From Treponemataceae bacterium (GTDB lineage: Bacteria > Spirochaetota > Spirochaetia > Treponematales > Rectinemataceae): a stretch of 29,100 nt of DNA. Every line of letters begins with the position of its first letter. The stretch's first letter is position 1. Made by a program: the position numbers and the translations under genes. Under the pieces are notes generated by a model, which did not search any database, was not told the origin of the DNA, and saw nothing but the letters and a program-made list of their open reading frames with translations. Below, piece after piece: positions 1 through 29,099 of this stretch. The DNA lies in NCBI GenBank assembly GCA_963677895.2, contig CAXXGJ010000029.1:1-29100 (forward strand). Reading direction: 5' to 3'.

Positions 1-2
1 TC

Positions 3-95
3 TATCTGGACAGGCTGAAGAATCCGAACCTGCCGATAAAACATATCATCTATCCGCCCATTCTCACGGAACAGAAAAGCGTCCGCGACATTTAA
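3..95 (+). CDS. C-terminal end of a LacI-type ligand-binding-domain transcriptional regulator (partial, truncated by window start)
   Basis: Manual translation from base 3 gives YLDRLKNPNLPIKHIIYPPILTEQKSVRDI* (TAA 93-95). This resembles the typical LacI/GalR tail (L..RI..P......I..P.L..R.SV). Not in the ORF track. Confidence 0.7.
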   Translation, partial: YLDRLKNPNLPIKHIIYPPILTEQKSVRDI

Positions 96-103
96 AACGC
101 GGG

Positions 104-862: not shown

Positions 863-865
863 GAT

Positions 866-3153: not shown

Positions 3154-3165
3154 GGAAGATGCTCC

Positions 3166-4542: not shown

Positions 4543-4552
4543 TCCAGCCCCC

Positions 4553-5818
4553 TCAGCAGAGCATAAGGGCTGGGCTTTCCAGCAACCCTTTTATCGACTT
4601 AAGAATTCGGGCTCCATAGGAGCCATCGATGACGCGATGATCGTAGGAAGCGGTTACTTCCATCATAGGGACGCTCTTCCATACCCCAGCTTCCCACACA
4701 GGCCGCGCCACGATGTTGCCAAGTGCAAAGATGCTACATTCGGGCGGGTTGATGATAGCCGTGAAATGGTCTATTCCGTGCATCCCCAGGTTGGATATCG
4801 TGGTGGAACCGCAACCCATGTCGGAAGGAACCAGGCTTCCTGCGCGCGCTTTTTCCACGCCGGCATTGTTGGCCGCGGCAATTTGCGCCAGCCCCAGGCT
4901 CTCCACATTCTTCGCAACCGGTACGATGAGTCCAGCGTCCAGCGCGACCGCTAAGCCGATATTGGAGTGCCGGTAGACCCGGATCTCGTCATTCTCGTAG
5001 CGCGCGTTCAGCAGCGGGAATTCCTTCGCGCTGACAGCGATAGCTTTCGCGAAAATATCGTTGTAGGAAATTTTCACGCCGCTCCTAGCAAAGATATCCG
5101 CCTTGAGCTTCATCGCTTCCGCCATGTCGATCTGTACCGAAAGCTGGAACGAAGGGATGGTCTGGACGCTTCTGAGCATCCTTTCACCAATTTTCCTGCG
5201 CATTGTGGTGAGCGCGAGCACTTCGTATTCCGTGGTCTCCGTCGCTGGGGCTTCCATCCGAGCCTCATCCTGCTGCGCTTCGGCGTCCGCCGAACCTTCG
5301 TTCATAACTTTAAAGCCCAAGGCATCCAGATAAGCCCGCACGTCGCTCCGTTTTACGAGACCCCCGTTGGCCGGCACCACCTTCGCGATATCCAACTTAT
5401 GCTCGGCCGCCAGTTTCTTGGCGTTCGGCATGGCGCGCGCTTCGGCCTTCGCGACATCTCGCATAATCAGCGCGAAATCATCATCATCGTCAGGCCGGTC
5501 CGTTTTTTTCGCAACGGTTGTGTCTACCGCGCCTACCGCGCCCGCTCCGTCCTTCGAAGCCGAGTAGGCAGCAAAATCCGACTCATCGCCCACTAATGCC
5601 AGCACGCAGCCTGCGTCGACGCTGTCGCCTTCCTTGACGAGCAGGTCGATGACGACGCCTTTCGCAAAGCTTTCTATCGAGAGCGTGGCCTTGTCCGTTT
5701 CCACTTCCAGAAGCAGGTCGCCGCGCTGAACCTTGTCGCCCTTCGCCACGAGCCAACGGCAGATGACGACTTCGTCAGTCGTCTGGCCGGCGCTCGGCAT
5801 CGTTATTTCCTTAATCAT
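4553..5818 (-). CDS. Dihydrolipoamide acyltransferase (E2) with a single lipoyl domain
   Basis: Lipoyl motif EVETDKAT, E3-binding segment (AMPNAKKLAAEH...GGLVKRSDV), TISNLG, catalytic DHRVIDG. Confidence 0.95.
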   Translation of the reverse strand: MIKEITMPSAGQTTDEVVICRWLVAKGDKVQRGDLLLEVETDKATLSIESFAKGVVIDLLVKEGDSVDAGCVLALVGDESDFAAYSASKDGAGAVGAVDTTVAKKTDRPDDDDDFALIMRDVAKAEARAMPNAKKLAAEHKLDIAKVVPANGGLVKRSDVRAYLDALGFKVMNEGSADAEAQQDEARMEAPATETTEYEVLALTTMRRKIGERMLRSVQTIPSFQLSVQIDMAEAMKLKADIFARSGVKISYNDIFAKAIAVSAKEFPLLNARYENDEIRVYRHSNIGLAVALDAGLIVPVAKNVESLGLAQIAAANNAGVEKARAGSLVPSDMGCGSTTISNLGMHGIDHFTAIINPPECSIFALGNIVARPVWEAGVWKSVPMMEVTASYDHRVIDGSYGARILKSIKGLLESPALMLC

Positions 5819-5834
5819 GTCGCATCACCTTTAT

Positions 5835-6848
5835 TCATGCCATCATCAATCTTCGCGCCGCCTCGACAATTCTTTCCTTGGAGGGAATGACATAGTTTTC
5901 AAGCGGCGGAGAGAAGGGCACCGGCGTATCGTAGGCAGCGACGCGCGAAATCGGCGCGTCCAGCAGGAATATCTCGTTCTCCGCGAAATACGAGGCTACC
6001 TGGGCTCCCCAGCCGCAATTGTAGTTGTCCTCGTGAACGATCATCAGCCTGCCCGTCTTCCGGACCGATTCGACAACCGTTTCGTAGTCAAAGGGAACGA
6101 GGGTTCTCGGATCTATGACTTCGCATTCGATCCCCTCTCTCGCCAGAATGTTCGCCGCCTCCTGGGCTTTGTAGCTCATGAGAAGGTTGGCCACGATGGT
6201 GATGTCTTTGCCCTCGCGGCGGATTGCCGCCTTTCCGAAAGGAACGGTGTAGTCCCCATCCGGTACATCGCCAGCCGTGTCGATGGCGTCCTTTTCCTTT
6301 CGCTTGCTTCCATACAAAAGCTTGTGCTCGAAGACGATGACGGGATTATCGTCTCTGATGGCTTCCTTCATCAGGCCTTTGGCGTCGTAAGACGTGGAGG
6401 GGCAGATGACCTTCAGGCCTGGAACGTGGGTAAAGTAGCTTTCCAGACTCTGCGCGTGCTGGGCTCCGCGGTTGCTCGCCCCGCAGGGAGCGCGCATCAC
6501 CATCGGTACGTGGACTTTGCCGCCGGACATATAGCACATCTTGGCGGCCTGGTTCACGATCTGGTCCATCATGCAAAAGAGGAAATCTCCATACTGGAGG
6601 TCAGCCACAGGCCGCATTCCCATCATAGACGAGCCTACGCATACGCCAGCGATCAGGATTTCTGATATGGGCGTGTTGATGACCCGCTTGCTTCCGAATT
6701 CTTCGGCAAGACCTTTTGTGACGGTAAAGGCGCCGCCCATTCCACCGGGAATATCCTCATCCTCGCCAATGCAGTAAACCGCCGGATTGGCTCTCATTTC
6801 TTCGGCTATCGCGCTCTTGAGAGCGTCGGCTATAGACATCTTGGCCAT
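5835..6848 (-). CDS. TPP-dependent dehydrogenase E1 beta subunit (AcoB/PdhB-like)
   Basis: IGED, NTPISE, DQIVNQAAK, QHAQSLE, FEHKLLY, EVIDPRTLVP; TGATG overlap with the alpha subunit gene. Confidence 0.95.
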   Translation of the reverse strand: MAKMSIADALKSAIAEEMRANPAVYCIGEDEDIPGGMGGAFTVTKGLAEEFGSKRVINTPISEILIAGVCVGSSMMGMRPVADLQYGDFLFCMMDQIVNQAAKMCYMSGGKVHVPMVMRAPCGASNRGAQHAQSLESYFTHVPGLKVICPSTSYDAKGLMKEAIRDDNPVIVFEHKLLYGSKRKEKDAIDTAGDVPDGDYTVPFGKAAIRREGKDITIVANLLMSYKAQEAANILAREGIECEVIDPRTLVPFDYETVVESVRKTGRLMIVHEDNYNCGWGAQVASYFAENEIFLLDAPISRVAAYDTPVPFSPPLENYVIPSKERIVEAARRLMMA

Positions 6849-7831
6849 CAGTTTTTCCCTCCATTCCAGTAAACGTCCGTCATAGCGGTTTCAAGCGCGG
6901 GGAACGGAGCGTTTTTCGCGTATTCGACGGCTTCGTCGATGTCATCCTCAATTTTCTTCTCTGTGGCGAGCAGTTCATCCTCGCAGGCCAGGCCCTTTTC
7001 CAGAATCAAGGCGCGGAACATGGTCACGGGATCTTTGGAGAACCAGAGCTTCTCTTCCTCTTTGGGCCTATACCCGCAGGCATCGTTGCGTGAATGCCCT
7101 CCGTGTCGATAGGTTTTAAGCTCGAGAATGGTCGGGCCCTCACCTTTCCGGGCGCGCTTTATAGCGCGGGCAGCCGCTTCGTTAACAGCCAGCACATCGT
7201 TCCCGTCCACGACTTCGGCGGGGATATCATAGGAGCCGGCCCTGTCGGCAGCCACATTCTCTTTGTTGCAGGTGATCTTGATGGATGTCGTGGCGGAATA
7301 AAGGTTATTCTCGCAGACGAATATGACTGGCAGCTTCCAGATGGCCGCGCCGTTCAGCGTTTCATGGAACGAACCTTCGTTGGTGGCGCCGTCGCCGAAA
7401 AAGCAGACAACAACGTTATCCTTGTTCTGCATCTGGTAAGCGAGTGCCACACCGGCCGCTATGGGAAGATTGCCGCCTACGATGGCATTAGCCGTCAGAG
7501 CCCCTACAGCGACATCGCCAGTATGCATCGCTCCGCCCTTGCCGTTGCAGCATCCATCAACCTTCCCGAACATTTCGCACATCATGGACCTCAGGGAAAC
7601 GCCTTTCGCGAGGTCATGACCGGCGGGGCGATGGGTAGATGCCATATAGTCATCCAGGCGCAGGTCATACAGCATGCCGACGGCGCAGGCTTCCTGACCG
7701 GTGCTCTGATGGATCGTTCCCGGCATAATCCCCTCCAGGAACAGATAATAAATTCTTTCCTCGTACTTGCGGATGAGAAACATCCTTTCATACATACCCA
7801 GCGATTTCTTCTTTTCAGGCATTTTCTTCAT
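6848..7831 (-). CDS. TPP-dependent dehydrogenase E1 alpha subunit (AcoA/PdhA-like)
   Basis: GQEA, STHR, GKGGAMH, TPP motif GDGATNEG...ENN, TYRHGGHS. Start moved from 7870 to ATG 7831, which follows AAGAGGGG. Confidence 0.94.
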   Translation of the reverse strand: MKKMPEKKKSLGMYERMFLIRKYEERIYYLFLEGIMPGTIHQSTGQEACAVGMLYDLRLDDYMASTHRPAGHDLAKGVSLRSMMCEMFGKVDGCCNGKGGAMHTGDVAVGALTANAIVGGNLPIAAGVALAYQMQNKDNVVVCFFGDGATNEGSFHETLNGAAIWKLPVIFVCENNLYSATTSIKITCNKENVAADRAGSYDIPAEVVDGNDVLAVNEAAARAIKRARKGEGPTILELKTYRHGGHSRNDACGYRPKEEEKLWFSKDPVTMFRALILEKGLACEDELLATEKKIEDDIDEAVEYAKNAPFPALETAMTDVYWNGGKN

Positions 7832-7848
7832 TAGGCCCCTCTTAAAAC

Positions 7849-7860
7849 ATGTAATTACAT
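7849..7860. promoter_or_regulatory. Putative operator, perfect palindrome ATGTAATTACAT (copy 1)
   Basis: Exact 12-bp self-complementary sequence just upstream of the E1 alpha RBS; identical copy at 8001-8012. Confidence 0.7.
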
Positions 7861-7947
7861 TAATAATCACGATGGTTTTTTTACGCTAAAAACAATCGGT
7901 TATGTTCAATAATGTGAACAAAGCGGCAATTATGTCCGCCTGAATGT

Positions 7948-7976
7948 AGTATGACATTAGTTATTCGGGTTGTCAA
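7948..7976 (-). promoter_or_regulatory. Sigma70-type promoter of the E1/E2/E3-kinase operon
   Basis: Minus-strand TTGACA (7976-7971), 17-nt spacer ending in TGn, then CATACT (7953-7948). Confidence 0.65.
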
Positions 7977-8000
7977 TAATATTTTACAACTACTATAACA

Positions 8001-8012
8001 ATGTAATTACAT
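8001..8012. promoter_or_regulatory. Putative operator, perfect palindrome ATGTAATTACAT (copy 2)
   Basis: Identical to 7849-7860; lies upstream of the -35 box. Confidence 0.7.
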
Positions 8013-8134
8013 ATACTAACCATTTCGCGCTGCTCTGGTTCTGCGCCAACCCCCAGCCCCGAGCTGGTAACGCGACTCGCCGGAGGCTATTATGCAAAAG
8101 GCCAAATTTCGCGACAGCTGATCAGGGGTGAACC

Positions 8135-9178
8135 ATGCAGAAGCGCATACGTGATTACGGAATTGAAATCGGCGAGATGAAGACGGGCAGGCTCAACAAG
8201 ATAAGCGACGTCAAGGACGTTCTCGTGGGGCATTGCACGATCGATACCGACGTAAATAAAACCGGCGTGACCTTCGTATCGCCATCGACCGCGAATCCTT
8301 TCTCGCGCAAACTTCCCGCCGCGGCCTTCATCCTGAACGGATTCGGCAAAAGCCAAGGCCTGCTTCAGATCGAGGAGTTGGGTTGCATCGAGACTCCGAT
8401 CTTCCTCACCAACACCCTCAACGTGGGACTCGTCCACGACGCGGCCGTCGGCTACATGATCGAACGCTGTGAAAAGGATGCCGTGGAACTGCGCTCCGTG
8501 AATCCGATCGTGATGGAGTGCAACGATTCCAACCTCAATGACATAAAGCGCAGAGTGGTGCGCGCCGAACATGTGGAGAAGGCGGTCGCCGACGCCAGGG
8601 AGGATTTCCCGGAAGGCGACGTAGGCGCCGGCAAGGGCATGATCTGCCACGGCCTAAAGGGCGGGATCGGCTCGGCCTCGAGGATATTCACCCTCGGTGG
8701 CAGGGAATTCACGCTGGGCGTCATGGCGCTCACTAACCACGGACGCCTGGGAGACCTGACGATAGCCGGCCAGCCCATCGGCCGGGAAATCATGAAAAAG
8801 CGGGAAGCCGTCAACAACGAAGACAAAGGCTCCGTCATCCTCGTATTCGCCACCGACGCGCCGCTGTCGAGCCGCCAGCTCAAACGCGTGATCAAGCGCG
8901 GATCGGTCGGTCTGGCGCGCCTGGGTTCCTTCATCGGCCACGGCTCGGGCGAAGTGTTCCTGGGATTTTCGACGGCCCAGAGCGTTTCCGGCGACAGCGA
9001 CATCATCGAGATTTCGATGGTCAGGGAAGAACGCCTCGAGCTTCTCTTCAGGGCCGCGGCGGAAAGCGCCGAGGAAGCGGTGCTGAATTCCATGGTCTGC
9101 GCTTCCTCGGTGACAGGCTTCAAGGGTTTCCGCTGCGAGTCCCTGGCCGGCTACATGGATCTGCTGCGCCGGCCTTAG
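8135..9178 (+). CDS. P1/S58-family peptidase (DmpA-like L-aminopeptidase/D-esterase)
   Basis: N-terminal RIRDYG...G..NKISDV..V.VGH, NGFGKS, ETPIFLTNT, ECND, GDVGAGKGM, KGGIGSASR, autoprocessing site DKG/SVI, HGSGE. Confidence 0.92.
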   Translation: MQKRIRDYGIEIGEMKTGRLNKISDVKDVLVGHCTIDTDVNKTGVTFVSPSTANPFSRKLPAAAFILNGFGKSQGLLQIEELGCIETPIFLTNTLNVGLVHDAAVGYMIERCEKDAVELRSVNPIVMECNDSNLNDIKRRVVRAEHVEKAVADAREDFPEGDVGAGKGMICHGLKGGIGSASRIFTLGGREFTLGVMALTNHGRLGDLTIAGQPIGREIMKKREAVNNEDKGSVILVFATDAPLSSRQLKRVIKRGSVGLARLGSFIGHGSGEVFLGFSTAQSVSGDSDIIEISMVREERLELLFRAAAESAEEAVLNSMVCASSVTGFKGFRCESLAGYMDLLRRP

Positions 9179-16626: not shown

Positions 16627-17289
16627 TCAATCGAACTTTTTCAGCTCGTTTATCATGGCCATGACATCAGTATTATAGAGTCGCTCAACGTTAATCTTGG
16701 GGAATCCGCCCGCGCGGAAATGCTTGCGCAGTTCCACTTCCTTGGCCACGGATTCCTCCGCCCTGACGAGCAGGTCCAGGTAATTGTCGGGAGGAATGAC
16801 CACGACGCCGTCGGCGTCGCCGAAGACGAGGTCGCCGGGATGGACGACCGCGCCCGAGCAGCTGACCGTGACGTCATGCTCGCCCGAGATGCCGATGACG
16901 TTGGTCGTCACCACCGATAAGCCGGTGCAGAAAACTGGATATCCGGATTTTTCGATGGCCAGGGAATCGGTCGCCGGACCATCGATGACGATGCCGGCGA
17001 AGCCCTGGCACTCGCAGAACAGCGCCACCATTTCGCCCACGCAGGCATAGGTCGTATCGCCGCAGCGGTCGATCACGATGACCGATCCCTTGGGCGCGTG
17101 TTCCATGGCGTAATAGAGCGCGCAGGAATCCTTTCCCTGCAGCCTCACCGTATAGGCGGGCCCGACCATTTTCGAATTCTTGTTGATCGGCTTCATCTCG
17201 GGGCGCATGTAGCCGCCGCCGATATAATGACCGATGGTCGCCGGATCCACTTTCATGAACCGGTCGATGATGTCTTGCGGAATTGCCAT
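16627..17289 (-). CDS. RraA/HMG-aldolase family protein
   Basis: MVGPAYTV, GSVIVID, ACVGEM, GIVIDG..TD, YPVFC, VHPGDLVFGDADGVVVIP. Confidence 0.9.
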   Translation of the reverse strand: MAIPQDIIDRFMKVDPATIGHYIGGGYMRPEMKPINKNSKMVGPAYTVRLQGKDSCALYYAMEHAPKGSVIVIDRCGDTTYACVGEMVALFCECQGFAGIVIDGPATDSLAIEKSGYPVFCTGLSVVTTNVIGISGEHDVTVSCSGAVVHPGDLVFGDADGVVVIPPDNYLDLLVRAEESVAKEVELRKHFRAGGFPKINVERLYNTDVMAMINELKKFD

Positions 17290-17301
17290 TATTAACCTCG
17301 C

Positions 17302-18129
17302 TTAGCGAATTTTGAGCTCGTAGATATCGGACCTTCTGTTCTTCAACGACGGGATCTGCCCGCGGATCTTGTCCAGGAAATCCAGATCGATTTCAGCCAA
17401 CGTCACGCCCGGCTGATCCTTGGATCTCGCGATGACGGTTCCCCAGGGATCCACGACAAGGCTGTTGCCGAAAGCGGTGAAATTGGGTTTCTTGCCTATC
17501 TGGGCCGGCGCGACGATATAGCAGCCGTTTTCGATGGCGCGGGCGCGGAGAATGGGCTCCCAGTGATCTTTGCCCGTGGACAGGGTAAAGTTGGCCGGCG
17601 TAAAGATGATCTGGGCTCCGTCCAGGGCGAGAAGACGGAACAGCTCGGGAAAGCGGATGTCGTAGCAGATGGAGAATCCAAGCTTGCCCAGGTCGCTGTC
17701 CACGGTCACGATTTCCGCGCCCGGCTGGATTCTTGCCGACTCGTTGCATACGGTGCCGTCCGTGAGGGTGACATCGAAGGTATGGAGTTTTCTGTAGCGC
17801 GCGATGATCCTGCCCTCCCTGTCCAGCATAACGGTGGTATTGAATCCCTTCGTCTCGCCGGGAATTTCTTCCTTGATGCTGCCGCAATGGATGTAGATGC
17901 CCAGTTCCTTGGCCTTCCGCGCCAGAATTTCCGTGCTGTAGCCGGGGATGGGTTCCGCCCCGCCGCCTTCGCCGATATTGTCCCCCAGCAGGTTCATCAC
18001 CTCGGGAAGGGCGACGAGCCGCGCGCCCTTGCGCGCGGCTTCGTCTATATATTCGCAGATCTGGGCCAGATTCTTCCCTTTGTCGTTCTGCGTATCCAGC
18101 TGGATGATCCCGATCAGGAATTTTCTCAT
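17302..18129 (-). CDS. Carbon-nitrogen hydrolase (Nit1/Nit2-like amidase)
   Basis: Glu-Lys-Cys triad: LPEV, YRKLHTFDV, SICYDIRFPE; HWEPILRARAIEN. Start at ATG 18129 after GAGGAG. Confidence 0.93.
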   Translation of the reverse strand: MRKFLIGIIQLDTQNDKGKNLAQICEYIDEAARKGARLVALPEVMNLLGDNIGEGGGAEPIPGYSTEILARKAKELGIYIHCGSIKEEIPGETKGFNTTVMLDREGRIIARYRKLHTFDVTLTDGTVCNESARIQPGAEIVTVDSDLGKLGFSICYDIRFPELFRLLALDGAQIIFTPANFTLSTGKDHWEPILRARAIENGCYIVAPAQIGKKPNFTAFGNSLVVDPWGTVIARSKDQPGVTLAEIDLDFLDKIRGQIPSLKNRRSDIYELKIR

Positions 18130-18142
18130 CGTATTCACTCCT

Positions 18143-19108
18143 CTAAATAAGGCCGTTGATGGCTTTGACATGATGGCAGGCAACGTAATAATCCTCTCTC
18201 GCCTTTTCGAATGCCGGCTCCGTGGTCGAGCAGATTTCGGTGGCGTATTCGCAGCGCTTGGCGAACCTGCAGCCGGGTTTCGGATTGATAGGCGAGGAAA
18301 TTTCCCCTTTGAGCAGGCGCCTGCCCTTCTTCGCGCCGAGCGCGGGCACGGGAACCGCGGCGAGCAGCGCCTTGGTGTAGGGGTGAAAGCGGTACTTGAA
18401 AATTTCCTTCACCGGCGCGTATTCGACCATCTTGCCCATATACATGACGAGGATGTTGTCGGAAATATGCTTGACGACGGCCATGTTGTGCGTGATGAAA
18501 AGGTAGGTGAGGTTTCTCTCCTGCTGCAGATCCTGCATCAGGTTGAGGATCTGCGCCTGGATGGATACGTCGAGGGCGGAGACGGGTTCGTCGCAGACGA
18601 TGAACTTCGGATTGAGGGACAGGGCGCGCGCCACGCCGATGCGCTGGCGGCGGCCGCCGTCCAGCTCGTGCGGATAGGAATCCGAAAGCCTGCGCGCGAG
18701 CCCTACCGTATCCATGAGCTTTCCGACCTGCTCGCTCAGTTCGGCGGGATTCTTGAACTTATTATAGATCTTCAGGGGCTCCGCGATGAGATTGCTCACC
18801 GACATTCTCGGATCGAGGGATGAAAAGGGATCCTGGAAAATCATCTGCATATCCTGGCGATACCGCTTGAGATCGGCGCGATTCAGCTGGCTGATATCCT
18901 CTCCCTCGAAATGGATGCTGCCCGAGGTCGCCTCCAGGAGGTGGATGGTCAGCCGGCCGAGCGTCGACTTGCCGCAGCCCGATTCCCCCACGACGCCGAG
19001 CGTCCGGCCCTTTTCGATGGCGAAGGATACGCCGTCGACGGCATGAAGATCGCCCCTGGGTGTCTTGAAATATTTCCTGAGATCTTTGACTTCTATCAGT
19101 GCGCTCAT
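18143..19108 (-). CDS. oppF: Peptide/nickel ABC transporter ATPase (OppF-like)
   Basis: GESGCGKST, FQDP, YPHELDGGRRQR, IVCDEPVSALD, HPYT, GCRFAKRC. Confidence 0.93.
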   Translation of the reverse strand: MSALIEVKDLRKYFKTPRGDLHAVDGVSFAIEKGRTLGVVGESGCGKSTLGRLTIHLLEATSGSIHFEGEDISQLNRADLKRYRQDMQMIFQDPFSSLDPRMSVSNLIAEPLKIYNKFKNPAELSEQVGKLMDTVGLARRLSDSYPHELDGGRRQRIGVARALSLNPKFIVCDEPVSALDVSIQAQILNLMQDLQQERNLTYLFITHNMAVVKHISDNILVMYMGKMVEYAPVKEIFKYRFHPYTKALLAAVPVPALGAKKGRRLLKGEISSPINPKPGCRFAKRCEYATEICSTTEPAFEKAREDYYVACHHVKAINGLI

Positions 19109-19117
19109 ATCAACCTC

Positions 19118-20083
19118 TTACCCATGGTACTTCACGCATTTCACGAAATGTCCCGGCTCCACTTCCACGACGGGCACGGCCGCGGCGCGGCATTTCTCCG
19201 AAGCGTCGGGGCATCGCGGCGCGAAAACGCATCCCTGAGGAAGATTCGTCGGGTCGGGCATCAGACCGGTGATCGGCTGGAGCCGGTCAACGTCCTCGTT
19301 CAGGTTGGGAATCGAACCGAAAAGACCGATCGTGTAGGGGTGTTTGGTGTTATTGTAGATATGCTCCAGGGTACCGTATTCCACGATTTCGCCCGCGTAC
19401 ATTATGGCCGCTTTCTGGCAAATCTCGGCCACCACGCCCAGGTCGTGCGTGATGAGGATGAGCGACGTACCCCTGTCCCTCATGAGCTTTTCTATGAGAT
19501 CGAGCACCTGGTCCTGGATCGTCACGTCGAGTGCCGTTGTCGGCTCATCCGCTATCAGCAGCTCGGGATTGCAGGCCAGCGCGATCGCGATGACCACCCG
19601 CTGCTTCATGCCGCCGGAAAACTGGTGCGGATATTCCGCGTAACGCTCGCCCGGAATGCCCACCAGCTCCAGCATTTCCTGGGCCTTTATGGAGGCCTTC
19701 GCGCGGGATATTTTCTGATGAAGGCGCACAACTTCAGCTATTTGATCGCCGACCGTGAGGACGGGGTTAAGCGCCGTCATGGGATCCTGGAAAATCATGG
19801 AGATCTTGTTGCCGCGAATCGAGCGCTTATCAGAAGGCGACATGGCGACGAGGTCCTGCCCGTCGTAGAGTATCTGGCCGCTGACGATCTTCCCGGGCGG
19901 ATCGGGAATCAGCTGCATTATGCTGAGCGCCGTGGTGGTTTTCCCCGCGCCCGTCTCGCCGACCAACCCCAGGGACTCGCCCTTCTTCAGGGAAATAGTC
20001 ATTCCGTTCACGGCGTGAACGGTGGTTGTGTCCGTCACGTAATGGACAACGAGATTCTTGATCTCGAGAATAGTGTCGTTCAT
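19118..20083 (-). CDS. oppD: Peptide/nickel ABC transporter ATPase (OppD-like)
   Basis: [45 protein letters not shown]. Confidence 0.94.
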
Positions 20084-20094
20084 TCACCGTCCCC

Positions 20095-20973
20095 TTAGCT
20101 CTTGAGCCGTGGATCGAGAGCGTCGCGCAGCCCGTCGCCCAGAAGATTGATGGAAAAAACCGTAAGCATTATCGCGAGTCCGGGGAAAGTGACGACCCAC
20201 CAGTAATCGCGGATGAAAGCCCTGCCGGAAGCGAGCATCGAACCCCACTCAGGCGTCGGGGGCATTATCCCCAATCCGATGAAGCTCATTCCCGCGCCCT
20301 GGATGATGGCGGCCGCTATGCTCATCGTAGCCTGGACGATGATGGGCGCCATGCAGTTCGGAATGATATGGCGCGTTATGATGCGCCAGTCGCTGGCGCC
20401 GTTGGAGCGGGCGGCTTCGATGTATTCCTGTTCCTTCACCGAGAGAATGGAAGCGCGCACAACGCGAGCGTAGCCGGGCACGGCGCCGATTCCTATGGCG
20501 AGGATCAGGTTGAAGAAACTCGTGCCCATGGCGGCGACTATCGAAACGGCCAGGAGGATGTTCGGTATCGAGAGCATGATGTCGATGAAGCGCATGATTA
20601 TGTTGTCCACGACCTTGCCGTAATAGCCCGAAATGCATCCGAGGATGATCCCGATCAGGCAGGATATCGTGACCGATACCAGACCCAGGGTGAGCGAGAT
20701 CCTGCAGCCGAAGATGACCCTGCTGAATATATCCCTGCCAAATTCGTCGGTTCCGAAAGGATACTCGAGGGAAGGCGCCTTGAAACGGCGGGAGAGCATC
20801 TGTTCGTCGAAGCCATAGGGCGCTATGAGCGAAGGGACGAGCGCCAGTATCGTCAGGAGAATTATGAAGGCGAGGCCGAGCACGGCGCCCTTGTTCTTTA
20901 CGAAACGCCGCCAAATCTCCTTGGATTGGCCTCGCTTTTTCATTTTTATGGAGAGGACTTCGTTGTCTGCCAT
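20095..20973 (-). CDS. oppC: Peptide/nickel ABC transporter permease (OppC-like)
   Basis: FGTDEFGRDIFSR, EYIEAARSNGA (EAA loop), PEWGSML, GDGLRDALDP. Confidence 0.94.
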   Translation of the reverse strand: MADNEVLSIKMKKRGQSKEIWRRFVKNKGAVLGLAFIILLTILALVPSLIAPYGFDEQMLSRRFKAPSLEYPFGTDEFGRDIFSRVIFGCRISLTLGLVSVTISCLIGIILGCISGYYGKVVDNIIMRFIDIMLSIPNILLAVSIVAAMGTSFFNLILAIGIGAVPGYARVVRASILSVKEQEYIEAARSNGASDWRIITRHIIPNCMAPIIVQATMSIAAAIIQGAGMSFIGLGIMPPTPEWGSMLASGRAFIRDYWWVVTFPGLAIMLTVFSINLLGDGLRDALDPRLKS

Positions 20974-20974
20974 A

Positions 20975-21946
20975 TTATGCCGCCTCCTTCGCAGGATGCA
21001 GCTTTTTCGTCCTGGGGCGGGTGTACATGGAACGGATCCTGGGATCCGCGAAACTGTACAATATGTCCACCAGAAGGTTCACCAGCGACATGACGAAGGC
21101 TATGAAAAGCACGCCGCCCTGGACCATCGGGAAGTTTTTAAGCTTTATGGCATCCACCATGAGTTTGCCGACGCCGGCGATGGAAAAGATGGATTCCGTC
21201 AGGACGGCGCCGCCGAGCTGCCTTCCGAAAGAAAGCCCCACGACGGTAATGATGGGGATCAGCGCGTTCTTGAGCGCGTGTTTCCAGATGACGACCCTTT
21301 CGGACTGTCCCTTGGCGCGGGCCGTCCTGATGTAGTCCTGGCGGACTATCTCGAGCATGCTCGACCGGGTCATGCGCATTATATTGGCCGAAGCGTTGGT
21401 ACCCACCGTGATTACGGGAAGCACCCAATGCATGGGCGTGCTGAATCCCGAGGGCGGGAACCATCGCAGCCACACGGCGAAGACGATTATCAGCATCATC
21501 CCCTGCCAGAAATTGGGCATGGATACGCCGATCATCGAAATCGAGGTCGCGAACTGATCGATGAACGAATATTGCCTTGTCGCCGAAATGATGCCCACCG
21601 AGATGCCGATTATCACGGCCAGCAGCACGCTGAGCGCGGATAGCTTGAGCGTGGCCGGGAAGCGCTGAAGGATCTCATCCGTGACAGGCTGCCTCGTCAC
21701 GTATGATGTCCCGAGGTCGCCTTCGAAGACGACGCCTTTCATATAGCGCAGATACTGGACGAGGAAAGGTTTGTCTAAGCCCTGCTGCTCGCGAAAAAGC
21801 TGCTTGTCCGCCGGCGTGGCCATATCGCCGAGAATGGCGTCGGCAGCGTCCCCCGGCGCGAAAAAAAGCATGCCGAATATGACGAAAGACACCCCCAGCA
21901 ACACGGGTATCATCATCACCAGCCTTCTGAATATGAATTTGATCAA
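20975..21946 (-). CDS. oppB: Peptide/nickel ABC transporter permease (OppB-like)
   Basis: GLDKP, GDLGTS, SMPNFW, DYIRTARAKG, HALKNALIP, DILYSFADPRIR; TTG start. Confidence 0.94.
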   Translation of the reverse strand: MIKFIFRRLVMMIPVLLGVSFVIFGMLFFAPGDAADAILGDMATPADKQLFREQQGLDKPFLVQYLRYMKGVVFEGDLGTSYVTRQPVTDEILQRFPATLKLSALSVLLAVIIGISVGIISATRQYSFIDQFATSISMIGVSMPNFWQGMMLIIVFAVWLRWFPPSGFSTPMHWVLPVITVGTNASANIMRMTRSSMLEIVRQDYIRTARAKGQSERVVIWKHALKNALIPIITVVGLSFGRQLGGAVLTESIFSIAGVGKLMVDAIKLKNFPMVQGGVLFIAFVMSLVNLLVDILYSFADPRIRSMYTRPRTKKLHPAKEAA

Positions 21947-21993
21947 AGAACCATTCTCCTTCCCGGCGGAATATGTGCCGACTCCATAAAACA

Positions 21994-22032
21994 GGATCCT
22001 CGATCCGACAGGCTTTGCCGGATCGAGGGTCC
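21994..22032 (-). terminator. Intercistronic stem-loop after oppA (partial terminator or mRNA stabiliser)
   Basis: Minus strand GGACCCTCGATCCGGCA-AAGCC-TGTCGGATCGAGGATCC followed by TGTTTT; 17-bp stem with one mismatch and one G-U pair. Confidence 0.75.
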
Positions 22033-22067
22033 ATTACGCATGTATCGCAGAAAATGTTCTTGAGCGC

Positions 22068-23567
22068 TTACTTGTAGACGGAAACCTTGGCCATCTCCAC
22101 CTGCTGCATCGGATCGCAGACCCAGCCTTCCACCCTGTCGCTCAATCCGTAGATGACGGGCGTAAAGGCGAAGGGAACGGTGTATCGGATATCCCAAAGG
22201 TAGTCCTGGATCTCCGCGTATGCCGCCGCGCGTTTCTTGCTGTCGTAGATGGTCTTGGCGGCCGCGAGCTTCTTGTCGATCCAGGGATCGTTCGGCTCGA
22301 GGCGTTCGCCGAAGGCGGAGTCGTAGATGATGAGGATGTTGGACGGCTCGTTGACGTTGCCGGCCCTCATGCCCGCCTGGAACTTGTTGCCCTGAGCGGT
22401 GTAGGTGGAAGCCGTCATCTGGAAGATCTTCACCTTTACGCCGACGGCTGCCCACATGTTCTGGATGATGGACGCGAGCCTGATGTCGGCTTCGCGGTTC
22501 TCAAGCAGGAAATTCATGGTGAAGCCATCGGGATAGCCGGCCTTCGCGAGGAGTTCCTTGGCCTTGACCGGGTCGTAGGGCAGGACGCCCTTGTTCTTGA
22601 ACGCGAAGACGGTGGGCGGATACAGGCCGTTCGCCACGGAGGCCGTCCCTTCATACACCGCGTCGACCAGGGCTACCTTGTCGATGGCATAGGACAACGC
22701 GTACCTGATGTCTTTGTTGCTGAGGAGCTTGTCCTTCATGCTGAAGGTGAGGGTCATGTAGCGGCTGGAATCACCCATGAGGATGTGGGCGTCTTTCAGG
22801 TTCTTCACTCGTTTGACGTCGTTGGCGGCGACATCGAAGACGGCGTCCACGCCGCCGGTCTCGAGCTCGATGACGCGGTTGGCGGCTTCGGGAATGATGG
22901 AAAAGATCACGTTCTTCGTGATCGCTTTTTCGCCCCAGTATTCCTCATTGCGCACGAGCGAGATCTCGGAACCCGATTTCCACGAAGCGAGCTTGTAGGG
23001 ACCGGTTCCGACGGGATTGCGGGCAAAAGCGTCGGCGCCCATCCGCTCAACGGCGGCCTTGCTCACGATGGCGCCGCGTCCCGTGGTCAGGGTGTTGAAG
23101 ATCGCCGCGTAGGGAGTCTTGAACTTGATCCTGATGGTGTAGGGATCCACGATCACGGTGTTGTCGGTATCGAAGGGAGCGAAGGTGGAGGCGCTGATGG
23201 AGTTGGCCTTCCCGCGCTTGAAGGTGAAAAGAACGTCCTCGGCGGTGAATTTCCCGCCGTCGTGGAATTTGACGTCCTTGCGAAGCTTCATTTCAAGGGT
23301 AAGGTCGTCGAGGAATTTCCACTCGGTGGCGAGACGGGGATGCACCACGCCTTCGGCATCTTCGTAGACAAGCTTGTCGAAGATATTCAGCTGAACCATC
23401 CAATTGCTGACAAAATTGGATGCCTGGGGATCCATGGTCTTAAGATCTTCCCATGTCGCCACCCTCAGGGTGTCCTTGAGCTTCCTGCCGGTGTTGTCCG
23501 CCGCGCCGACGGTCACGGCGAGCAGCAGCGCGATGGCCATGGCCATCAAGATTACCTTTCTCTTCAT
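22068..23567 (-). CDS. oppA: Family-5 ABC substrate-binding protein (OppA/DppA/GsiB-like), non-lipoprotein signal peptide
   Basis: KTMDP, LATEW, KLRKDVKFHDG..FTAEDV.FT, PVGTGPYK, RYALSYAIDK, AKELLAKAGYPDG; no lipobox Cys. Confidence 0.93.
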   Translation of the reverse strand: MKRKVILMAMAIALLLAVTVGAADNTGRKLKDTLRVATWEDLKTMDPQASNFVSNWMVQLNIFDKLVYEDAEGVVHPRLATEWKFLDDLTLEMKLRKDVKFHDGGKFTAEDVLFTFKRGKANSISASTFAPFDTDNTVIVDPYTIRIKFKTPYAAIFNTLTTGRGAIVSKAAVERMGADAFARNPVGTGPYKLASWKSGSEISLVRNEEYWGEKAITKNVIFSIIPEAANRVIELETGGVDAVFDVAANDVKRVKNLKDAHILMGDSSRYMTLTFSMKDKLLSNKDIRYALSYAIDKVALVDAVYEGTASVANGLYPPTVFAFKNKGVLPYDPVKAKELLAKAGYPDGFTMNFLLENREADIRLASIIQNMWAAVGVKVKIFQMTASTYTAQGNKFQAGMRAGNVNEPSNILIIYDSAFGERLEPNDPWIDKKLAAAKTIYDSKKRAAAYAEIQDYLWDIRYTVPFAFTPVIYGLSDRVEGWVCDPMQQVEMAKVSVYK

Positions 23568-23598
23568 GTTTCCTGGGTCTCCTTTCTAAAAATTTGCT

Positions 23599-24351
23599 TT
23601 ATGCTTTGAGTTCAATCTTAAATTCATAAGCCATATAGGCGGCAATCCGGTCGACGCACTTCTCCACGAGAGCTTTCCCTTTTTCGGCCGTCGCGATCGT
23701 GGCGTCGCCGACGGTGGCGTTGGGAGTCTTGGCGCTCAAAGGGATATAGCGGATCACGTCGGTGAAGTCCTGGTAGAATTCGGAGGGAGGTTCGATCCTC
23801 GTGGCCTTGGACATATCCACAAGGTCTGGCCGCAGATAGAGCAAGACCGAAGTGCCGCATTCGCTCGCGTGGCCGTGAGCCATATACCCCTTCAGCTCGA
23901 AGATGTCATTGCCGTTGGCCGCGGCGAAACGCCACCAGTCGATCTGGCCGCACTTCACCTTGCGCTCTCTCTGATAACGCCTGGCCAGATAGTTCACCAT
24001 GTCCACATTGCCCGCGTGGCCGTTTATGAACATGAGGTTCTTGAATCCATAGTCCATGAGCGCGGTGCATAAATCATCCATGGCCGCTTCGTAGGTGGAT
24101 TTCCGCAGCGTGAGCGTGCCCGGATAATCCAGGAGCATCGAGGAGTCGCCCATGCCGATGGCGGGGGCCACGAGAGCGCCCGTCTTTTCCGCTATACGGA
24201 TCGCGAGCGCCTCGGCGACGATGGTATCGGATCCCATCGGCAGGTGGGGTCCATATATCTCCACCGCGCCGGTCGGAATTATCACCGTGTCCGTCATTTT
24301 TCTGCGCTCGTCGAAGGCCGTCCAGCTCATCTCTTCTATCTTGTGGGTCAC
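23599..24351 (-). CDS. Creatininase-family amidohydrolase (non-canonical metal ligands)
   Basis: IPTGAVEIYGPHLPMGSD, YPGTLTL, INGHAGN, GHASECGTS, LRPDLVDM, VGDATIATAEKG; AAGGAG RBS and GTG start. Confidence 0.9.
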   Translation of the reverse strand: MTHKIEEMSWTAFDERRKMTDTVIIPTGAVEIYGPHLPMGSDTIVAEALAIRIAEKTGALVAPAIGMGDSSMLLDYPGTLTLRKSTYEAAMDDLCTALMDYGFKNLMFINGHAGNVDMVNYLARRYQRERKVKCGQIDWWRFAAANGNDIFELKGYMAHGHASECGTSVLLYLRPDLVDMSKATRIEPPSEFYQDFTDVIRYIPLSAKTPNATVGDATIATAEKGKALVEKCVDRIAAYMAYEFKIELKA

Positions 24352-24533: not shown

Positions 24534-24561
24534 AGTATAGACTGAAAATTCCTTATGTCAA
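24534..24561 (-). promoter_or_regulatory. Sigma70-type promoter of the creatininase-opp operon
   Basis: Minus-strand TTGACA (24561-24556), 16-nt spacer, TATACT (24539-24534), with AT-rich upstream sequence. Confidence 0.6.
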
Positions 24562-24776
24562 TTAAAAGTTTTAATAATGTTTGTTGTCGTTTATGAGTAA
24601 ATATAACCATATGGTGATAATTTATGCGTTTTCGTACCCAAGAGTCAGAGCTATCGGGAGAGAAACACCACGCTCCAATGTTTCATCATTGAAATCGAAG
24701 CCAGAATCACGCAGACGTGGCCATGCCTCGCCGCCTGCCGCGGGAACCGCTGTCAACACGATTTTCTGGCCGCATC

Positions 24777-24807
24777 CATAATCGCTTTCATAATCGCTTC
24801 CATAATC
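24777..24807. repeat. 12-bp-period tandem direct repeat CATAATCGCTT(T/C), about 2.6 copies
   Basis: CATAATCGCTTT CATAATCGCTTC CATAATC read directly, 43 nt before the AKR start. Confidence 0.85.
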
Positions 24808-24850
24808 CAGTGCCTTCATGGTAAAACGGGCGGCACAAGGAAGGAATGCC

Positions 24851-25873
24851 ATGTCCACGGTCATACTGGGAAAAACTCGCATCGAGGTGAACAAGAATGG
24901 CTTCGGAGCCCTGCCCATCCAGCGAATCCCGCAGGAAGAAGCAGCGGCTCTCGTCCTGAAAGCATATAAGGGCGGAATCGGGTTCTTTGATACGGCGCGG
25001 GGCTACTCCGACAGCGAGAAGAAGCTGGGCGCGGCCCTTAAGGATGTCAGGAAGAACGTATTCATAGCCTCCAAGACACAGGCCAAGACGGGCGAAAACC
25101 TGCGTGCCGACCTCGAAACCAGCCTACGCGATCTCCAGACCGACTATCTGGACCTTTATCAGTTCCACAATCCCGCCTTCTGCCCGAAACCGGGGGACGG
25201 CACGGGCCTGTACGAGGCGATACTCGAGGCAAAAGAAAAGGGTAAGATCCGCCACATCGGCATTTCCAACCACCGACTCCAGATTGCCCATGAAAGCGTC
25301 GATTCGGGTCTATACGAGACTCTCCAGTTTCCATTTTCCTACCTTTCGACGGCCAAAGACCTGGAACTGGTCCAGAAATGCAAAAACGCCGACATGGGGC
25401 TCATCGCCATGAAGGCGCTCTCCGGCGGCCTGATCACCAACTCGGCGGCGGCCTATGCCTATCTCGACCAGTTCGACAATGTGCTTCCCATATGGGGCAT
25501 CCAGAAGGAAAGCGAGCTGGATGAGTTCCTCGCCTATATAGCCGATCCCCCCCGTTTGACGGAGGAAATCCGCGCCCTCATCGAAAAGGACAGGACGGAA
25601 CTCCTGGGCGAATTCTGCCGCGGCTGCGGCTACTGCATGCCCTGCCCTGTCGGCATAGAGATCAACATCTGCGCGCGCATGTCCCTGATGATACGCCGTT
25701 CCCCGCCGAAAAAACTGCTCTCGCCCGAGTCCCGGGCGATGATGAAGAAGATCGAGGACTGCCTCCACTGCGGCCAGTGCGGCTCCCGATGCCCCTACAA
25801 TCTGGATACTCCCGCGCTGCTTACGAAAAATTATGCCGATTACAGGGAAATTTTAGCTGGAAAAGCGATTTAA
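24851..25873 (+). CDS. Aldo/keto reductase with C-terminal 4Fe-4S dicluster domain
   Basis: GFGALP, FFDTARGYSDSE, IASKT, DYLDLYQFH, GKIRHIGIS, AMKALSGG; CRGCGYCMPCP and CLHCGQCGSRCP. Start at ATG 24851 after AAGGAAGGA. Confidence 0.93.
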   Translation: MSTVILGKTRIEVNKNGFGALPIQRIPQEEAAALVLKAYKGGIGFFDTARGYSDSEKKLGAALKDVRKNVFIASKTQAKTGENLRADLETSLRDLQTDYLDLYQFHNPAFCPKPGDGTGLYEAILEAKEKGKIRHIGISNHRLQIAHESVDSGLYETLQFPFSYLSTAKDLELVQKCKNADMGLIAMKALSGGLITNSAAAYAYLDQFDNVLPIWGIQKESELDEFLAYIADPPRLTEEIRALIEKDRTELLGEFCRGCGYCMPCPVGIEINICARMSLMIRRSPPKKLLSPESRAMMKKIEDCLHCGQCGSRCPYNLDTPALLTKNYADYREILAGKAI

Positions 25874-26716: not shown

Positions 26717-27410
26717 TCAAGCCAACTCTTCGATCAATCTGTAGCCGATGCCGATCTCCGTCAGAATGTAGAGCGGATGCGTACTCTCCGGTTCTATTTT
26801 CCTTCGTATATTGGCCATGAAAACTCTCAGGGATTGATATTCGTCCGTCGTTTCGTAGCCCCATACCTTTTTCTGTATGAACTGATGGGTCAAAACCTTG
26901 CCCGAATGCTCGGCGAGAAGGGCAAGAAGCTCTGTACTCGATGGGGGTCAGATGCACGTCTTTCCCGTCGACCGTCACGATGCGCCGCTCGAAATCGATG
27001 AAAAGCCCTCCGACGGAAAAGATGGTCGGTTCGATATCCCGAGGAACGGCGTGCCTGAGCGCTACGCGAATCCTCGCCAGGAGCTCCGGGATGTTGAAGG
27101 GCTTGGTGATGTAATCGTCAGCCCCCGCGTCCAGGGCTACTACCTTCTCCCTTTCCTGATCCCTCGCCGAGATGACGATGACGGGCACCTGCGAACGCAT
27201 TCGTATTTGGGCAAGCACTTCGGAACCATCGATGTCGGGCAGGCCAAGATCCAGGAGGATGATACCCGGGTTGTTGGCGAGAAAAAGCGAAATGCCGGAA
27301 AGGCCCGACTCAGCCGTATCGCAGCGATAGCCGCTGGCCTTGAGCGATATTCTCAGCAGGTTCTGTATGCTCTTGTCATCCTCTATGATCAGGACTCTTG
27401 CCTCATCCAT
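26717..27410 (-). pseudogene. kdpE: KdpE-like OmpR-family response regulator with +1 frameshift near 26931-26934
   Basis: Receiver motifs IEDD, LLDLGLPDIDG, SAR, GADDYITKPF. After HLTPIEY the shifted frame reads LLALLAEHSGKVLTHQFIQKKVWG...LRVFMANIRRKIE...YILTEIGIGYRLIEELA* (TGA 26719-26717). Span is 694 nt = 3n+1. Confidence 0.88.
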
Positions 27411-28873
27411 GGCTTTCCTCCTCTAAAATAGGAAGAGAAAAAGAGAAGGTGGCTCCGCCCTCGGCGTTGTTCATGCCCGTTATCGAGCCCCCGTGCGCCA
27501 GAATCGTGGCCTTGCATATGCTCAAGCCCAGTCCCGCGCCTTTCCTGCTCTCTGCCGCGTTCTTTCCCGATGTCCCGAAACTCTCGAACAGGTGGTCCAG
27601 GACATCCTTTCCCATTCCTCCCCCGTCATCGGACACCGAAAACTCCACTTTGTCCTGTCGCTGTTCAACCTTCACGACGATATGGCAGTCGGCCTTCGTG
27701 TGTTCGATAGCGTTGTTGAGGAGATTTATCAGCACCTGGATAATGAGCTGCCCGTCCAGGGGAACGAGAAGGATACCCTGTGAGGGAATGTAGGAAAGAC
27801 GGTGCTGCCCGAGATTCTTGGCCACTCTCGAAAGGGCCTCGCTCACGATATCGTCCACGATCTCGGCTTGTTTCTTGATGATGAGCTTCCCCTCCTGGAT
27901 GCTGGGCCATGTTGAGGAGGTTCTCGACCATGGTTCCGAGCCAGACCGCGTCCGAATGGATATCGGCGAGCAGGCTCCGTTTCGTTTCCTCGTCTATGTC
28001 CCGGCTGCGGTCGAGCAGGAATTCCGAACCTCCCGCGATCGCGGTGAGGGGAGTCCGAAGATCGTGGGAAATACTTCTCAATAAATTGTTTCTCAATCGT
28101 TCTTTTTCGATGTTGATGCGATGGCGTTCCTCCGCCTGATGTAGTTCCTCGCGCTCCATGGCCATGACGAACTGGGAGAGTATGGTTTCGAGATAGAGTC
28201 GTTCGTCCTTGGCGATGTCGCCTTCCGAGCAGTCGATCTTGAGCACACCCACGGTCTTGTTCTGGTTCATGACGGGGATGAAGCGCTTCCCGGCGATCAT
28301 GGGACCATAGCCTTCCACGCTTTCGGCGGGCTTTTTCGCATAGCAGGCGGCAGCCTCGGGATCGGCGAGGGCAGAAGCTTCGCCGTAGAAAATGGCGCAA
28401 GGTTTGCCGATGAGCATGGTGATGCTCTTTTCGCCGTAGGCGACGATTTCATCTTTTTCGGAAATATTCAGGTAGCCGTTGCTGACTTTATAGAGCTTGT
28501 CGGTCATTTCCTCGTTGCGCGCGGAAATGGCGATCTGGCTCTGGAGTCTCGACGTGAGCGTGGAGACGATGAAAGCCGAGATCAGGAAGATTCCCAGGGA
28601 GACGAAATAGGACGGGTCGTCGATCGTGAATGTATGCAGGGGTTCGGTGAAAAAATAGTTGAAGGTGAATATGCAGAAGAAGGAGGAGAGGACGCCCCAA
28701 ATGTAGCGTTTCGTCTCGATGACGATGATCAGGATGCTGAGCACGTAGATTATGAGGATGTTCTCGACCCGCAGATTGAGGCTTCGGATGAGAAAGGCCA
28801 CGAGGGTGGAGAGGAGAAGGATGCCGAAGGTCTCGGCGGCGTGCTTGGCCATGGCGCTGTGCTTATGATCCAT
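27403..28873 (-). pseudogene. kdpD: Short KdpD-like sensor histidine kinase (4-TM, GAF-like, HisKA, HATPase) with +1 frameshift near 27904-27906
   Basis: FNYFFTEPLHTF TM motif and SISHDLRTPLTAI H-box. After NLLNMA an extra C shifts the frame; the continuation SIQEGKL...VDDIVSEAL joins the N, G1 and G2 boxes (NLLNNA, DDGGGM, GAGLGLSIC). Span is 1471 nt = 3n+1. Confidence 0.88.
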
Positions 28874-28874
28874 A

Positions 28875-29099
28875 TTACCTTCCATGAATCGCGTCGGCGG
28901 CATCTTTGGCGATTCGCGCGAACCCCATGAATACGACATAGATTTCCAGCCGCCCCAGCAGCATTCCGGCGATTCCCACCCACAGGACGCCGGATGGAGC
29001 GGCAGGGCCGGTTATGCCCGTCGAAAACCCGACCGTCCCCAGGGCCGACGCGAACTCGAAGGCCGAATCCTGTATCGAATAGCCGAAAAAACAATAGGC
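28875..29099 (-). CDS. trkH: TrkH/KtrB-family K+ uptake membrane protein, C-terminal part (truncated by window end)
   Basis: Manual translation: AYCFFGYSIQDSAFEFASALGTVGFSTGITG...GMLLGRLEIYVVF...IHGR*. Contains the FE..SA.GTVG.S.G pore loop and M..GRLE motif. TAA at 28877-28875, 1 nt before the kdpD ATG. Not in the ORF track. Confidence 0.9.
   Translation of the reverse strand, partial: AYCFFGYSIQDSAFEFASALGTVGFSTGITGPAAPSGVLWVGIAGMLLGRLEIYVVFMGFARIAKDAADAIHGR

Follow-up and report, generated by a model that had tools for sequence, protein, structure and literature searches.

A predicted uptake-and-breakdown operon in a Rectinemataceae bacterium, with an Arg-less RraA-fold protein, a creatininase variant and a Nit amidase

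The window analyzed here, i.e. the whole stretch of 29,100 nt at positions 1–29,100 of contig CAXXGJ010000029.1 (Treponemataceae bacterium, assembly GCA_963677895.2; named relatives at 96–98% identity belong to Rectinemataceae), carries eight co-oriented genes on its minus strand (24351 → 16627), identified from the list of open reading frames (ORFs) and a Pfam scan. As listed in Table 1, they encode a creatininase-family protein (Crn*), a family-5 solute-binding protein (SBP), four further components of an Opp-type importer, a Nit amidase and an RraA-fold protein (RraA-T). The sequence evidence indicates that the eight genes constitute a genuine uptake-and-breakdown operon, which recurs in anaerobic bacteria. 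The intergenic gaps, in gene order, are 31, 121, 1, 11, 9, 13 and 12 nt, and the genes have a GC content of 0.57–0.58 (genome, 0.56). The initial annotation had described eight co-oriented genes with short gaps behind one TTGACA/TATACT promoter, with no classical peptidase among them, and this description holds: the gaps span 1–121 nt, no peptidase gene lies within the operon, and the promoter is present. Seven promoter-like sites were found versus 6.3 in shuffled sequences, so that the scan by itself is at chance level; the −35 and −10 boxes are identical in all five aligned close relatives, including one (L021) with diverged flanking DNA. No regulator gene adjoins the operon here, and the regulators at relatives' loci are of the LysR, GntR, RpiR or sigma54 type. 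The 121-nt gap, located 3′ of the SBP gene, contains a hairpin that is possibly an mRNA-stabilizing or partial terminator element (terminator-like sites overall, 11 versus 10.1 expected, are not above chance). A 98-aa ORF (24622–24918) was considered as an M20 remnant and rejected, since the link was a clustering artefact.

Table 1. Features of the operon region (positions in the window)
Feature	Position	Strand	Remarks
Sigma70-type promoter, TTGACA-16-TATACT	24534..24561	-	11/12 consensus match; 183 nt before Crn start
Crn*: creatininase-family protein, Tyr/Gly variant, 250 aa	23599..24351	-	PF02633
Family-5 SBP, 499 aa	22068..23567	-	PF00496; best PDB match 5U4O
Hairpin between SBP and permease genes	21998..22028	-	13-pair stem, T-rich tail
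OppB-type permease	20975..21946	-	PF00528+PF19300
OppC-type permease	20095..20973	-	PF00528+PF12911
OppD-type ATPase	19118..20083	-	PF00005+PF08352
OppF-type ATPase	18143..19108	-	PF00005+PF08352
Nit1/Nit2-type amidase, 275 aa	17302..18129	-	PF00795; E43-K114-C155 triad intact
RraA-T: RraA-fold protein of Arg-less clade, 220 aa	16627..17289	-	PF03737, 118.7 bits

For none of the three enzymes, nor for the SBP, does an NCBIfam equivalog model reach its own cut-off. Crn* shares PF02633 with creatininase (PDB 1J2T/1V7Z), MftE and IolN, but falls below all three corresponding equivalog cut-offs (129 bits for creatininase model TIGR04448, cut-off 235). Alignment revealed that it keeps E31, D42 and H112 (equivalents of creatininase Glu34, Asp45 and His120) as well as the His178 equivalent, whereas Tyr33 replaces His36, Gly166 replaces Glu183, and Glu122 is not kept. 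Among the 120 top Crn* homologs, Y33 is found in 119 and G166 in 118. The binuclear ligands of creatininase are presumably Glu34/His36/Asp45/His120/Glu183. Across 150 representatives of the wider family, the positions of His36 and Glu183 covary (69 H/E, 59 with neither, 13 mixed (11 + 2) and 9 gapped), which fits both positions serving one metal site. Judged by these residues, Crn* is not a canonical binuclear amidohydrolase: one of the two metal sites of creatininase appears to be lost, and the protein is probably a one-metal amidohydrolase. Creatinase/sarcosine genes are not found nearby. In the ESM Atlas, both the creatininase and the RraA matches were only to clusters without a named function.

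RraA-T belongs to the family of the HMG/CHA aldolase–oxaloacetate decarboxylase (LigK/GalC, PDB 3NOJ) and has the same metal ligands, D108 aligning with Asp124 and E184 with Glu199. It differs in carrying T107 at the position of Arg123, Glu in place of Asp102 and an invariant His21, and scores 93 bits against the LigK model (cut-off 304). H21, D54, E86, T107 and D108 are each present in 120/120 RraA-T homologs, and E184 in 119/120. In an unrooted tree built from 40 RraA proteins of the studied loci, none of them a solved enzyme, the 24 Arg-less proteins make up one side of a 100/98 branch. Arg123 is essential for HMG aldolase activity (PMC5065237). Because RraA-T lacks this residue, the initial annotation's view that the pathway ends with keto-acid cleavage is unlikely, on sequence grounds, to hold for the canonical reaction, and the protein may act before Nit. 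Four Arg-containing RraA paralogs are encoded elsewhere in the source genome. No gallate or protocatechuate genes were found near RraA-T. At loci L169 and L170, another kind of Opp operon carries several M20 hydrolases and two or three RraA paralogs, one of Thr-type.

The amidase is, by its sequence motifs, of canonical Nit1/Nit2 type. Its best PDB matches are mouse Nit2, worm NitFhit and yeast Nit2/Nit3 (2W1V, 1EMS, 4H5U, 1F89), and it shares with Nit1 (deaminated-glutathione repair) and Nit2 (omega-amidase of the glutamine transaminase–omega-amidase pathway) the E-K-C triad, the CYDxRFPE omega-amidase motif (here CYDIRFPE) and the FTxxTG..HW motif. The triad residues, together with R159 and F181, are invariant in 21 cassette Nits. 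Unlike in the Nit1/Nit2 systems, the Nit gene here shares a catabolic operon with the genes for Crn*, RraA-T and an importer, and the protein remains under the cut-offs of the deaminated-glutathione (dGSH) amidase models (179/500 and 155/355 bits); the N-carbamoylputrescine amidase model gave 102 bits. Nit1/Nit2 substrates are described as 2-oxo-acid amides that cyclize, alpha-ketoglutaramate being 99.7% inert lactam whose ring opens slowly at pH 7.2 (PMC10452834). In the Nit1/Nit2 literature consulted, ring opening is base-catalyzed and no other mode is described.

The importer has the family-5 architecture of the E. coli DppABCDF and iaaA-gsiABCD systems, and in the latter the gsi genes share a transcript with an amidase gene. 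The cassette SBP, however, falls below both the DppA and the GsiB cut-offs (172 bits for GsiB, cut-off 594). In an alignment of 18 cassette SBPs with E. coli DppA, which is gappy in this region, the columns of DppA R355 and W405 are gaps and D408 is replaced by N, S or T in all 18; R164, Y270, R401 and Y415 of the SBP are invariant among them. We take DppA Asp408 to bind the peptide amine and Arg355 the carboxylate, with Trp405 likewise a peptide-terminus residue. This pattern suggests that the imported compound would have no free alpha-amino group.

The distribution of the gene set was examined at loci of Crn* relatives. A search with the Crn alignment yielded 192 relatives from metagenomes; the best 80 of these were used, and genome loci were added. 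Clustering at 90% Crn identity gave 41 groups; after L030 and L031 were dropped (42–44% identity, different context) and L117–L119 added, there were 42, of which 25 had enough flanking sequence to be informative (neighbors counted within 10 kb; RraA-T called at a minimum of 180 bits). Nit is present in 23/25 groups, RraA-T in 15/25 and an Opp SBP in 18/25, in shuffled gene order, in Spirochaetota and Bacillota. At several loci TRAP or GltS-family carriers take the place of the Opp importer, which is thus an exchangeable part and not a fixed cassette member. Of the four-component neighborhood proposed initially, Crn*, Nit and RraA-T do travel together, while the importer is exchanged. The idea of an import-and-hydrolysis cassette for a non-standard amide nevertheless stands: the arrangement is conserved, the enzymes co-occur elsewhere, and the SBP lacks the DppA peptide-terminus residues, so that the combination of generic peptide binding with absent co-occurrence, named as a refutation, was not what we found. 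Accessory genes at these loci encode M20 amidohydrolases, a second nitrilase, RidA and EamA exporters. In one 90% group, L022 and L048 have an SBP cut at 183 aa and have lost the rest of the cassette, whereas L049 keeps Nit and RraA-T; this state represents recent decay of the cassette.

Genome surveys gave a similar association. A survey of 401 Bacillota-centered genomes, from the phylum to which G063 belongs, detected Crn* (E≤1e-70) in four (G063, G079, G221 and G396) and RraA-T (E≤1e-60) also in four (G063, G221, G317 and G396), three of them shared. In 401 genomes from the order of G061, Crn* was detected in two and RraA-T in one, the sole RraA-T lying 0.9 kb from Crn* (G518). Among 61 relatives, RraA-T accompanies Crn* in all six genomes with a Crn* hit beyond 1e-100; one more, 80% complete, has RraA-T at a contig end. 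Nit or Crn lies within 1.5 kb of 8/10 top-scoring RraA-T loci (the remaining two are at contig ends) versus 0/34 RraA loci with lower scores, of which 31 are Arg-type and 3 contain a Thr-type protein. The cassette was also found on human-gut metagenome contigs. It is real, patchy and rare, occurring in about 1% of sampled genomes.

An ICL-family gene is present in five of the 25 groups. In three of these (L001, L051 and L107) its product lacks the KxCGH loop (Cys-less ICL) and is never accompanied by RraA-T, while in the remaining two groups the ICL is canonical. L001 (G000:C18:408000–427000) is a second, paralogous cassette in the source genome (G000), composed of genes for a beta-aspartyl peptidase (passing TIGR01975), a canonical creatininase-family protein, Opp, Nit, the Cys-less ICL and Crn*, and is convergent on a 2-oxo-acid dehydrogenase operon. 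An isoaspartyl route as a general answer was rejected, since IadA occurs in L001 only. The same genome contains a third creatininase-plus-Opp locus (L002, G000:C25:150000–168000), which also encodes RidA, a PLP enzyme of class I/II and a member of the ornithine-cyclodeaminase family, suggesting that the genome has a range of systems for modified amino acids. A fused 4-oxalocrotonate-tautomerase-like protein, with Ser or Ala in place of the catalytic Pro1, is encoded at L054, L060/L061, L064, L117 and L118.

RraA-T homologs also occur in Shinella and Aminobacter, and NCBI lists an RraA-T member for Anaeropeptidivorans aminofermentans. The Arg-less RraA clade is also represented in proteobacterial plasmid loci, 22 of which were examined. 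In all 22, a transporter (TRAP, TTT, Opp, polyamine-type ABC or MFS) is encoded next to RraA-T; Nit is adjacent in seven, a creatininase-family gene in six, and both in none. The five creatininase sequences checked for motifs all lack His36 and Glu183. Other partners include a 5-guanidino-2-oxopentanoate (keto-arginine) decarboxylase (2 loci; 649 bits, cut-off 500), a carbamoylase with pyrroline-2-carboxylate (Pyr2C) reductase (2 loci), HpcH aldolases (4 loci), leaderless GGT-like amidases and N-formylglutamate amidohydrolase-like proteins. In Terrarubrum the order Opp-Crn-RraA-T-GGT repeats the layout of the operon, except that Nit is replaced by a GGT-like amidase. The Thr nucleophile is retained in the GGT-like proteins, and Asp433, which we assume to bind the alpha-amino group (with Arg114 binding the glutamyl alpha-carboxylate), is absent in 5/5, a loss that parallels that of DppA Asp408 in the SBP. 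In Nitratireductor (L172), a LysR-TRAP-Nit-RraA-T unit is located directly upstream of thiCOSGE, which is not so in the other plasmid loci examined.

Taken as a whole, the cassette very probably serves an N-blocked cyclic amide. For its chemistry we tentatively propose the scavenging of an N-blocked 2-oxo-acid amide that exists mainly as a ring. The most likely substrate class would be 2-hydroxy-5-oxoproline (alpha-ketoglutaramate in its lactam form) or a conjugate in which it is N- or C-linked to an amino acid, i.e. a deaminated glutamine or gamma-glutamyl compound. According to this proposal, (i) the Opp system would import the compound lacking a free alpha-amino group, (ii) Crn*, as a one-metal amidohydrolase, would first cleave one amide, which may belong to a second ring or be a peptide-like bond, (iii) RraA-T would hold the alpha-hydroxy-carboxylate end on Mg2+ and open the hemiaminal ring, giving the 2-oxo acid in its open-chain form, a task that the Cys-less ICL-family protein may perform where RraA-T is replaced, and (iv) Nit would hydrolyze the open-chain omega-amide to a 2-oxo acid and an amine or ammonia. 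Omega-amide hydrolysis is established chemistry of the Nit family, and its application to the cassette substrate is our inference. Ring opening by C-N cleavage would proceed without a pyruvate enolate, and Arg123 would therefore not be needed; a reaction requiring a metal and a base but no carbanion stabilizer would explain the loss of both Arg123 in RraA-T and the Cys loop in ICL. RraA-T is placed before Nit because Nit substrates, keto-arginine and keto-citrulline all close into 2-hydroxyproline-type rings; likewise, the RraA-T partners in plasmid loci act on substrates that cyclize, which supports the ring-opening step. The cyclic forms of keto-arginine and keto-citrulline were reportedly the subject of work by Cooper and Meister in 1978.

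Several observations weigh against this proposal. The loci are related and were chosen by similarity, so the counts overstate independence. Neither RraA-T nor the Cys-less ICL is found in six of the 25 groups: L065, L069, L078 and L119 have Crn* and Nit without either, and L083 and L097 lack Nit as well as both. Three plasmid loci consist of RraA-T and a transporter only. The cassette encodes no transaminase or substrate source, and of all steps that of Crn* is the least constrained, as nothing fixes the bond that it would cut. TRAP SBPs from two loci best match distant sialic-acid and other DctP entries in PDB, none of the best 60 being labeled a pyroglutamate binder. Among the matches of the cassette ICL is PA4872, a Cys-less oxaloacetate decarboxylase of the ICL family, which sets a precedent for that activity. 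Finally, the GGT-like partners lack Arg114 too; without Asp433 and Arg114 they would therefore not act on intact gamma-glutamyl groups, and as regards a 2-oxoglutaryl group these losses appear neutral, neither proving nor excluding it.

In the order assumed by the initial annotation, Crn* would open a cyclic imide or amide, Nit would free a 2-oxo-dicarboxylate such as oxaloacetate or a 4-hydroxy-2-oxo acid, and this product would be decarboxylated or cleaved to pyruvate non-canonically by RraA-T or the Cys-less ICL. The RraA/HMG and the ICL families both have members known to decarboxylate oxaloacetate (titles of 3NOJ and 3B8I), which would explain their exchange; the omega-amidase type of Nit, the 4-oxalocrotonate-tautomerase-like protein in 4/25 groups and the 2-oxo-acid dehydrogenase adjoining L001 also agree with it. 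However, the stabilizer of the pyruvate enolate, Arg123, is missing throughout the RraA-T clade, the source genome already has its Arg-containing paralogs, the HpcH aldolases of the plasmid loci would be redundant, and RraA-T beside a keto-arginine decarboxylase is left unexplained, which makes this order rather unlikely. That decarboxylase, and the carbamoylase, Pyr2C reductase and RidA encoded beside RraA-T, would instead suit keto-citrulline or keto-arginine in a bicyclic form resembling a hydantoin or creatinine, whose creatinine shape also fits the family of Crn*: Crn* would open the imidazolidinone and RraA-T the hydroxyproline ring, and Nit would remove the carbamoyl group, leading via pyrroline-2-carboxylate to proline. 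Yet Nit has the CYDIRFPE motif and scores far lower as an N-carbamoylputrescine than as a dGSH amidase, and Pyr2C reductase is not conserved in the anaerobe cassette, so we consider this route improbable.

The loss of Arg would also be accounted for by the C-N lyase chemistry of a ureidoglycolate lyase-like reaction: an N-acyl-alpha-hydroxy amino acid would arise when Crn* opens an imidazolidinone, a hydroxy-hydantoin or a hydroxy-diketopiperazine, RraA-T would cleave this acid to an amide and glyoxylate (or pyruvate), and Nit would hydrolyze the amide. A glyoxylate/hydroxypyruvate reductase is indeed encoded near RraA-T in three plasmid loci, but all three are from Rhodobacterales, and no glyoxylate enzyme recurs in the mapped anaerobe loci; such a route is distinctly improbable. 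A plain peptide importer to which housekeeping or repair genes are only loosely joined, with a regulatory or otherwise non-catalytic role for the RraA-like protein, would be in keeping with the score of OppB close to the cut-off region of the broad Opp2B model (339/350 bits), and with the Opp operons and many SBP paralogs common in the source genome. We regard it as very improbable, given that the gene set recurs over two phyla with order shuffled and transporters exchanged, the DppA peptide-terminus residues are missing, and RraA-T has retained the metal ligands while acquiring invariant polar residues of its own. The probability remaining beyond these five readings falls to other substrates. 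Creatinine catabolism, mycofactocin and inositol routes, gallate/protocatechuate cleavage and canonical gamma-glutamyl peptide use were rejected as well, the conserved neighbors giving no support to any of them.

Outside the operon, the window (positions 104–7870, minus strand) encodes 2-oxo-acid/acetoin dehydrogenase subunits E1a, E1b, E2 and E3, a histidine phosphatase, a glycerol kinase and an SDR protein. A DmpA/S58 peptidase gene (8135–9178, other strand), 7.4 kb from the operon, does not recur among cassette neighbors. Positions 8060–29100 are repeated on another contig (G000:C6:323712–352771) at 97.7–97.9% identity; at the junction C6 carries ~8 kb more, comprising another Opp operon, and positions 1–8060 have no match on that contig; this duplication probably reflects two strains in one bin (contamination 5.46%). 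A KdpD-like kinase is encoded by overlapping ORFs of 424 and 151 aa (27403–28939) and by a single 511-aa ORF on the second contig, the split being likely a frameshift or an assembly error.

No literature on this cassette was found in a search whose coverage falls short of most subscription journals and supplements, so that tables there could list its genes. A further parallel is provided by the pairs of cyclic imide hydrolase and omega-amidase in nicotine/hydroxypyridine catabolism, where ring opening is followed by omega-amidase action, as proposed here. In that catabolism 2,3,6-trihydroxypyridine is converted to alpha-ketoglutaramate. Unlike these systems, the cassette has no oxygenases or dehydrogenases, employs other ring-opening families and occurs in anaerobic hosts; the nicotine omega-amidase is cited in PMC6302742. 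Importer-plus-amidase operons lacking an assigned substrate are common, and as a catabolic operon the cassette is of a known kind. What is new are the uncharacterized subfamilies, which fail membership of the HMG aldolases and creatininases. The current labels "HMG aldolase" and "creatinine amidohydrolase" are probably wrong, and the presence in one genomic setting of RraA, ICL and creatininase folds, each without its textbook catalytic residues, marks new chemistry. It is somewhat unlikely that the Arg-less RraA clade represents a widespread undescribed enzyme class opening cyclic hemiaminals of 2-oxo acids (alpha-ketoglutaramate lactam, cyclized deaminated gamma-glutamyl compounds, keto-arginine and keto-citrulline), convergently replaced by Cys-less ICL and paired with one-metal creatininase variants, by which bacteria would feed on dead-end cyclized metabolites. 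If the ring-opening proposal is true, RraA-T would catalyze a step that is treated as spontaneous and rate-limiting for omega-amidase (PMC10452834), and the cassette would provide a fate for 2-hydroxy-5-oxoproline, which has seldom been explored according to a review (PMC6302742).

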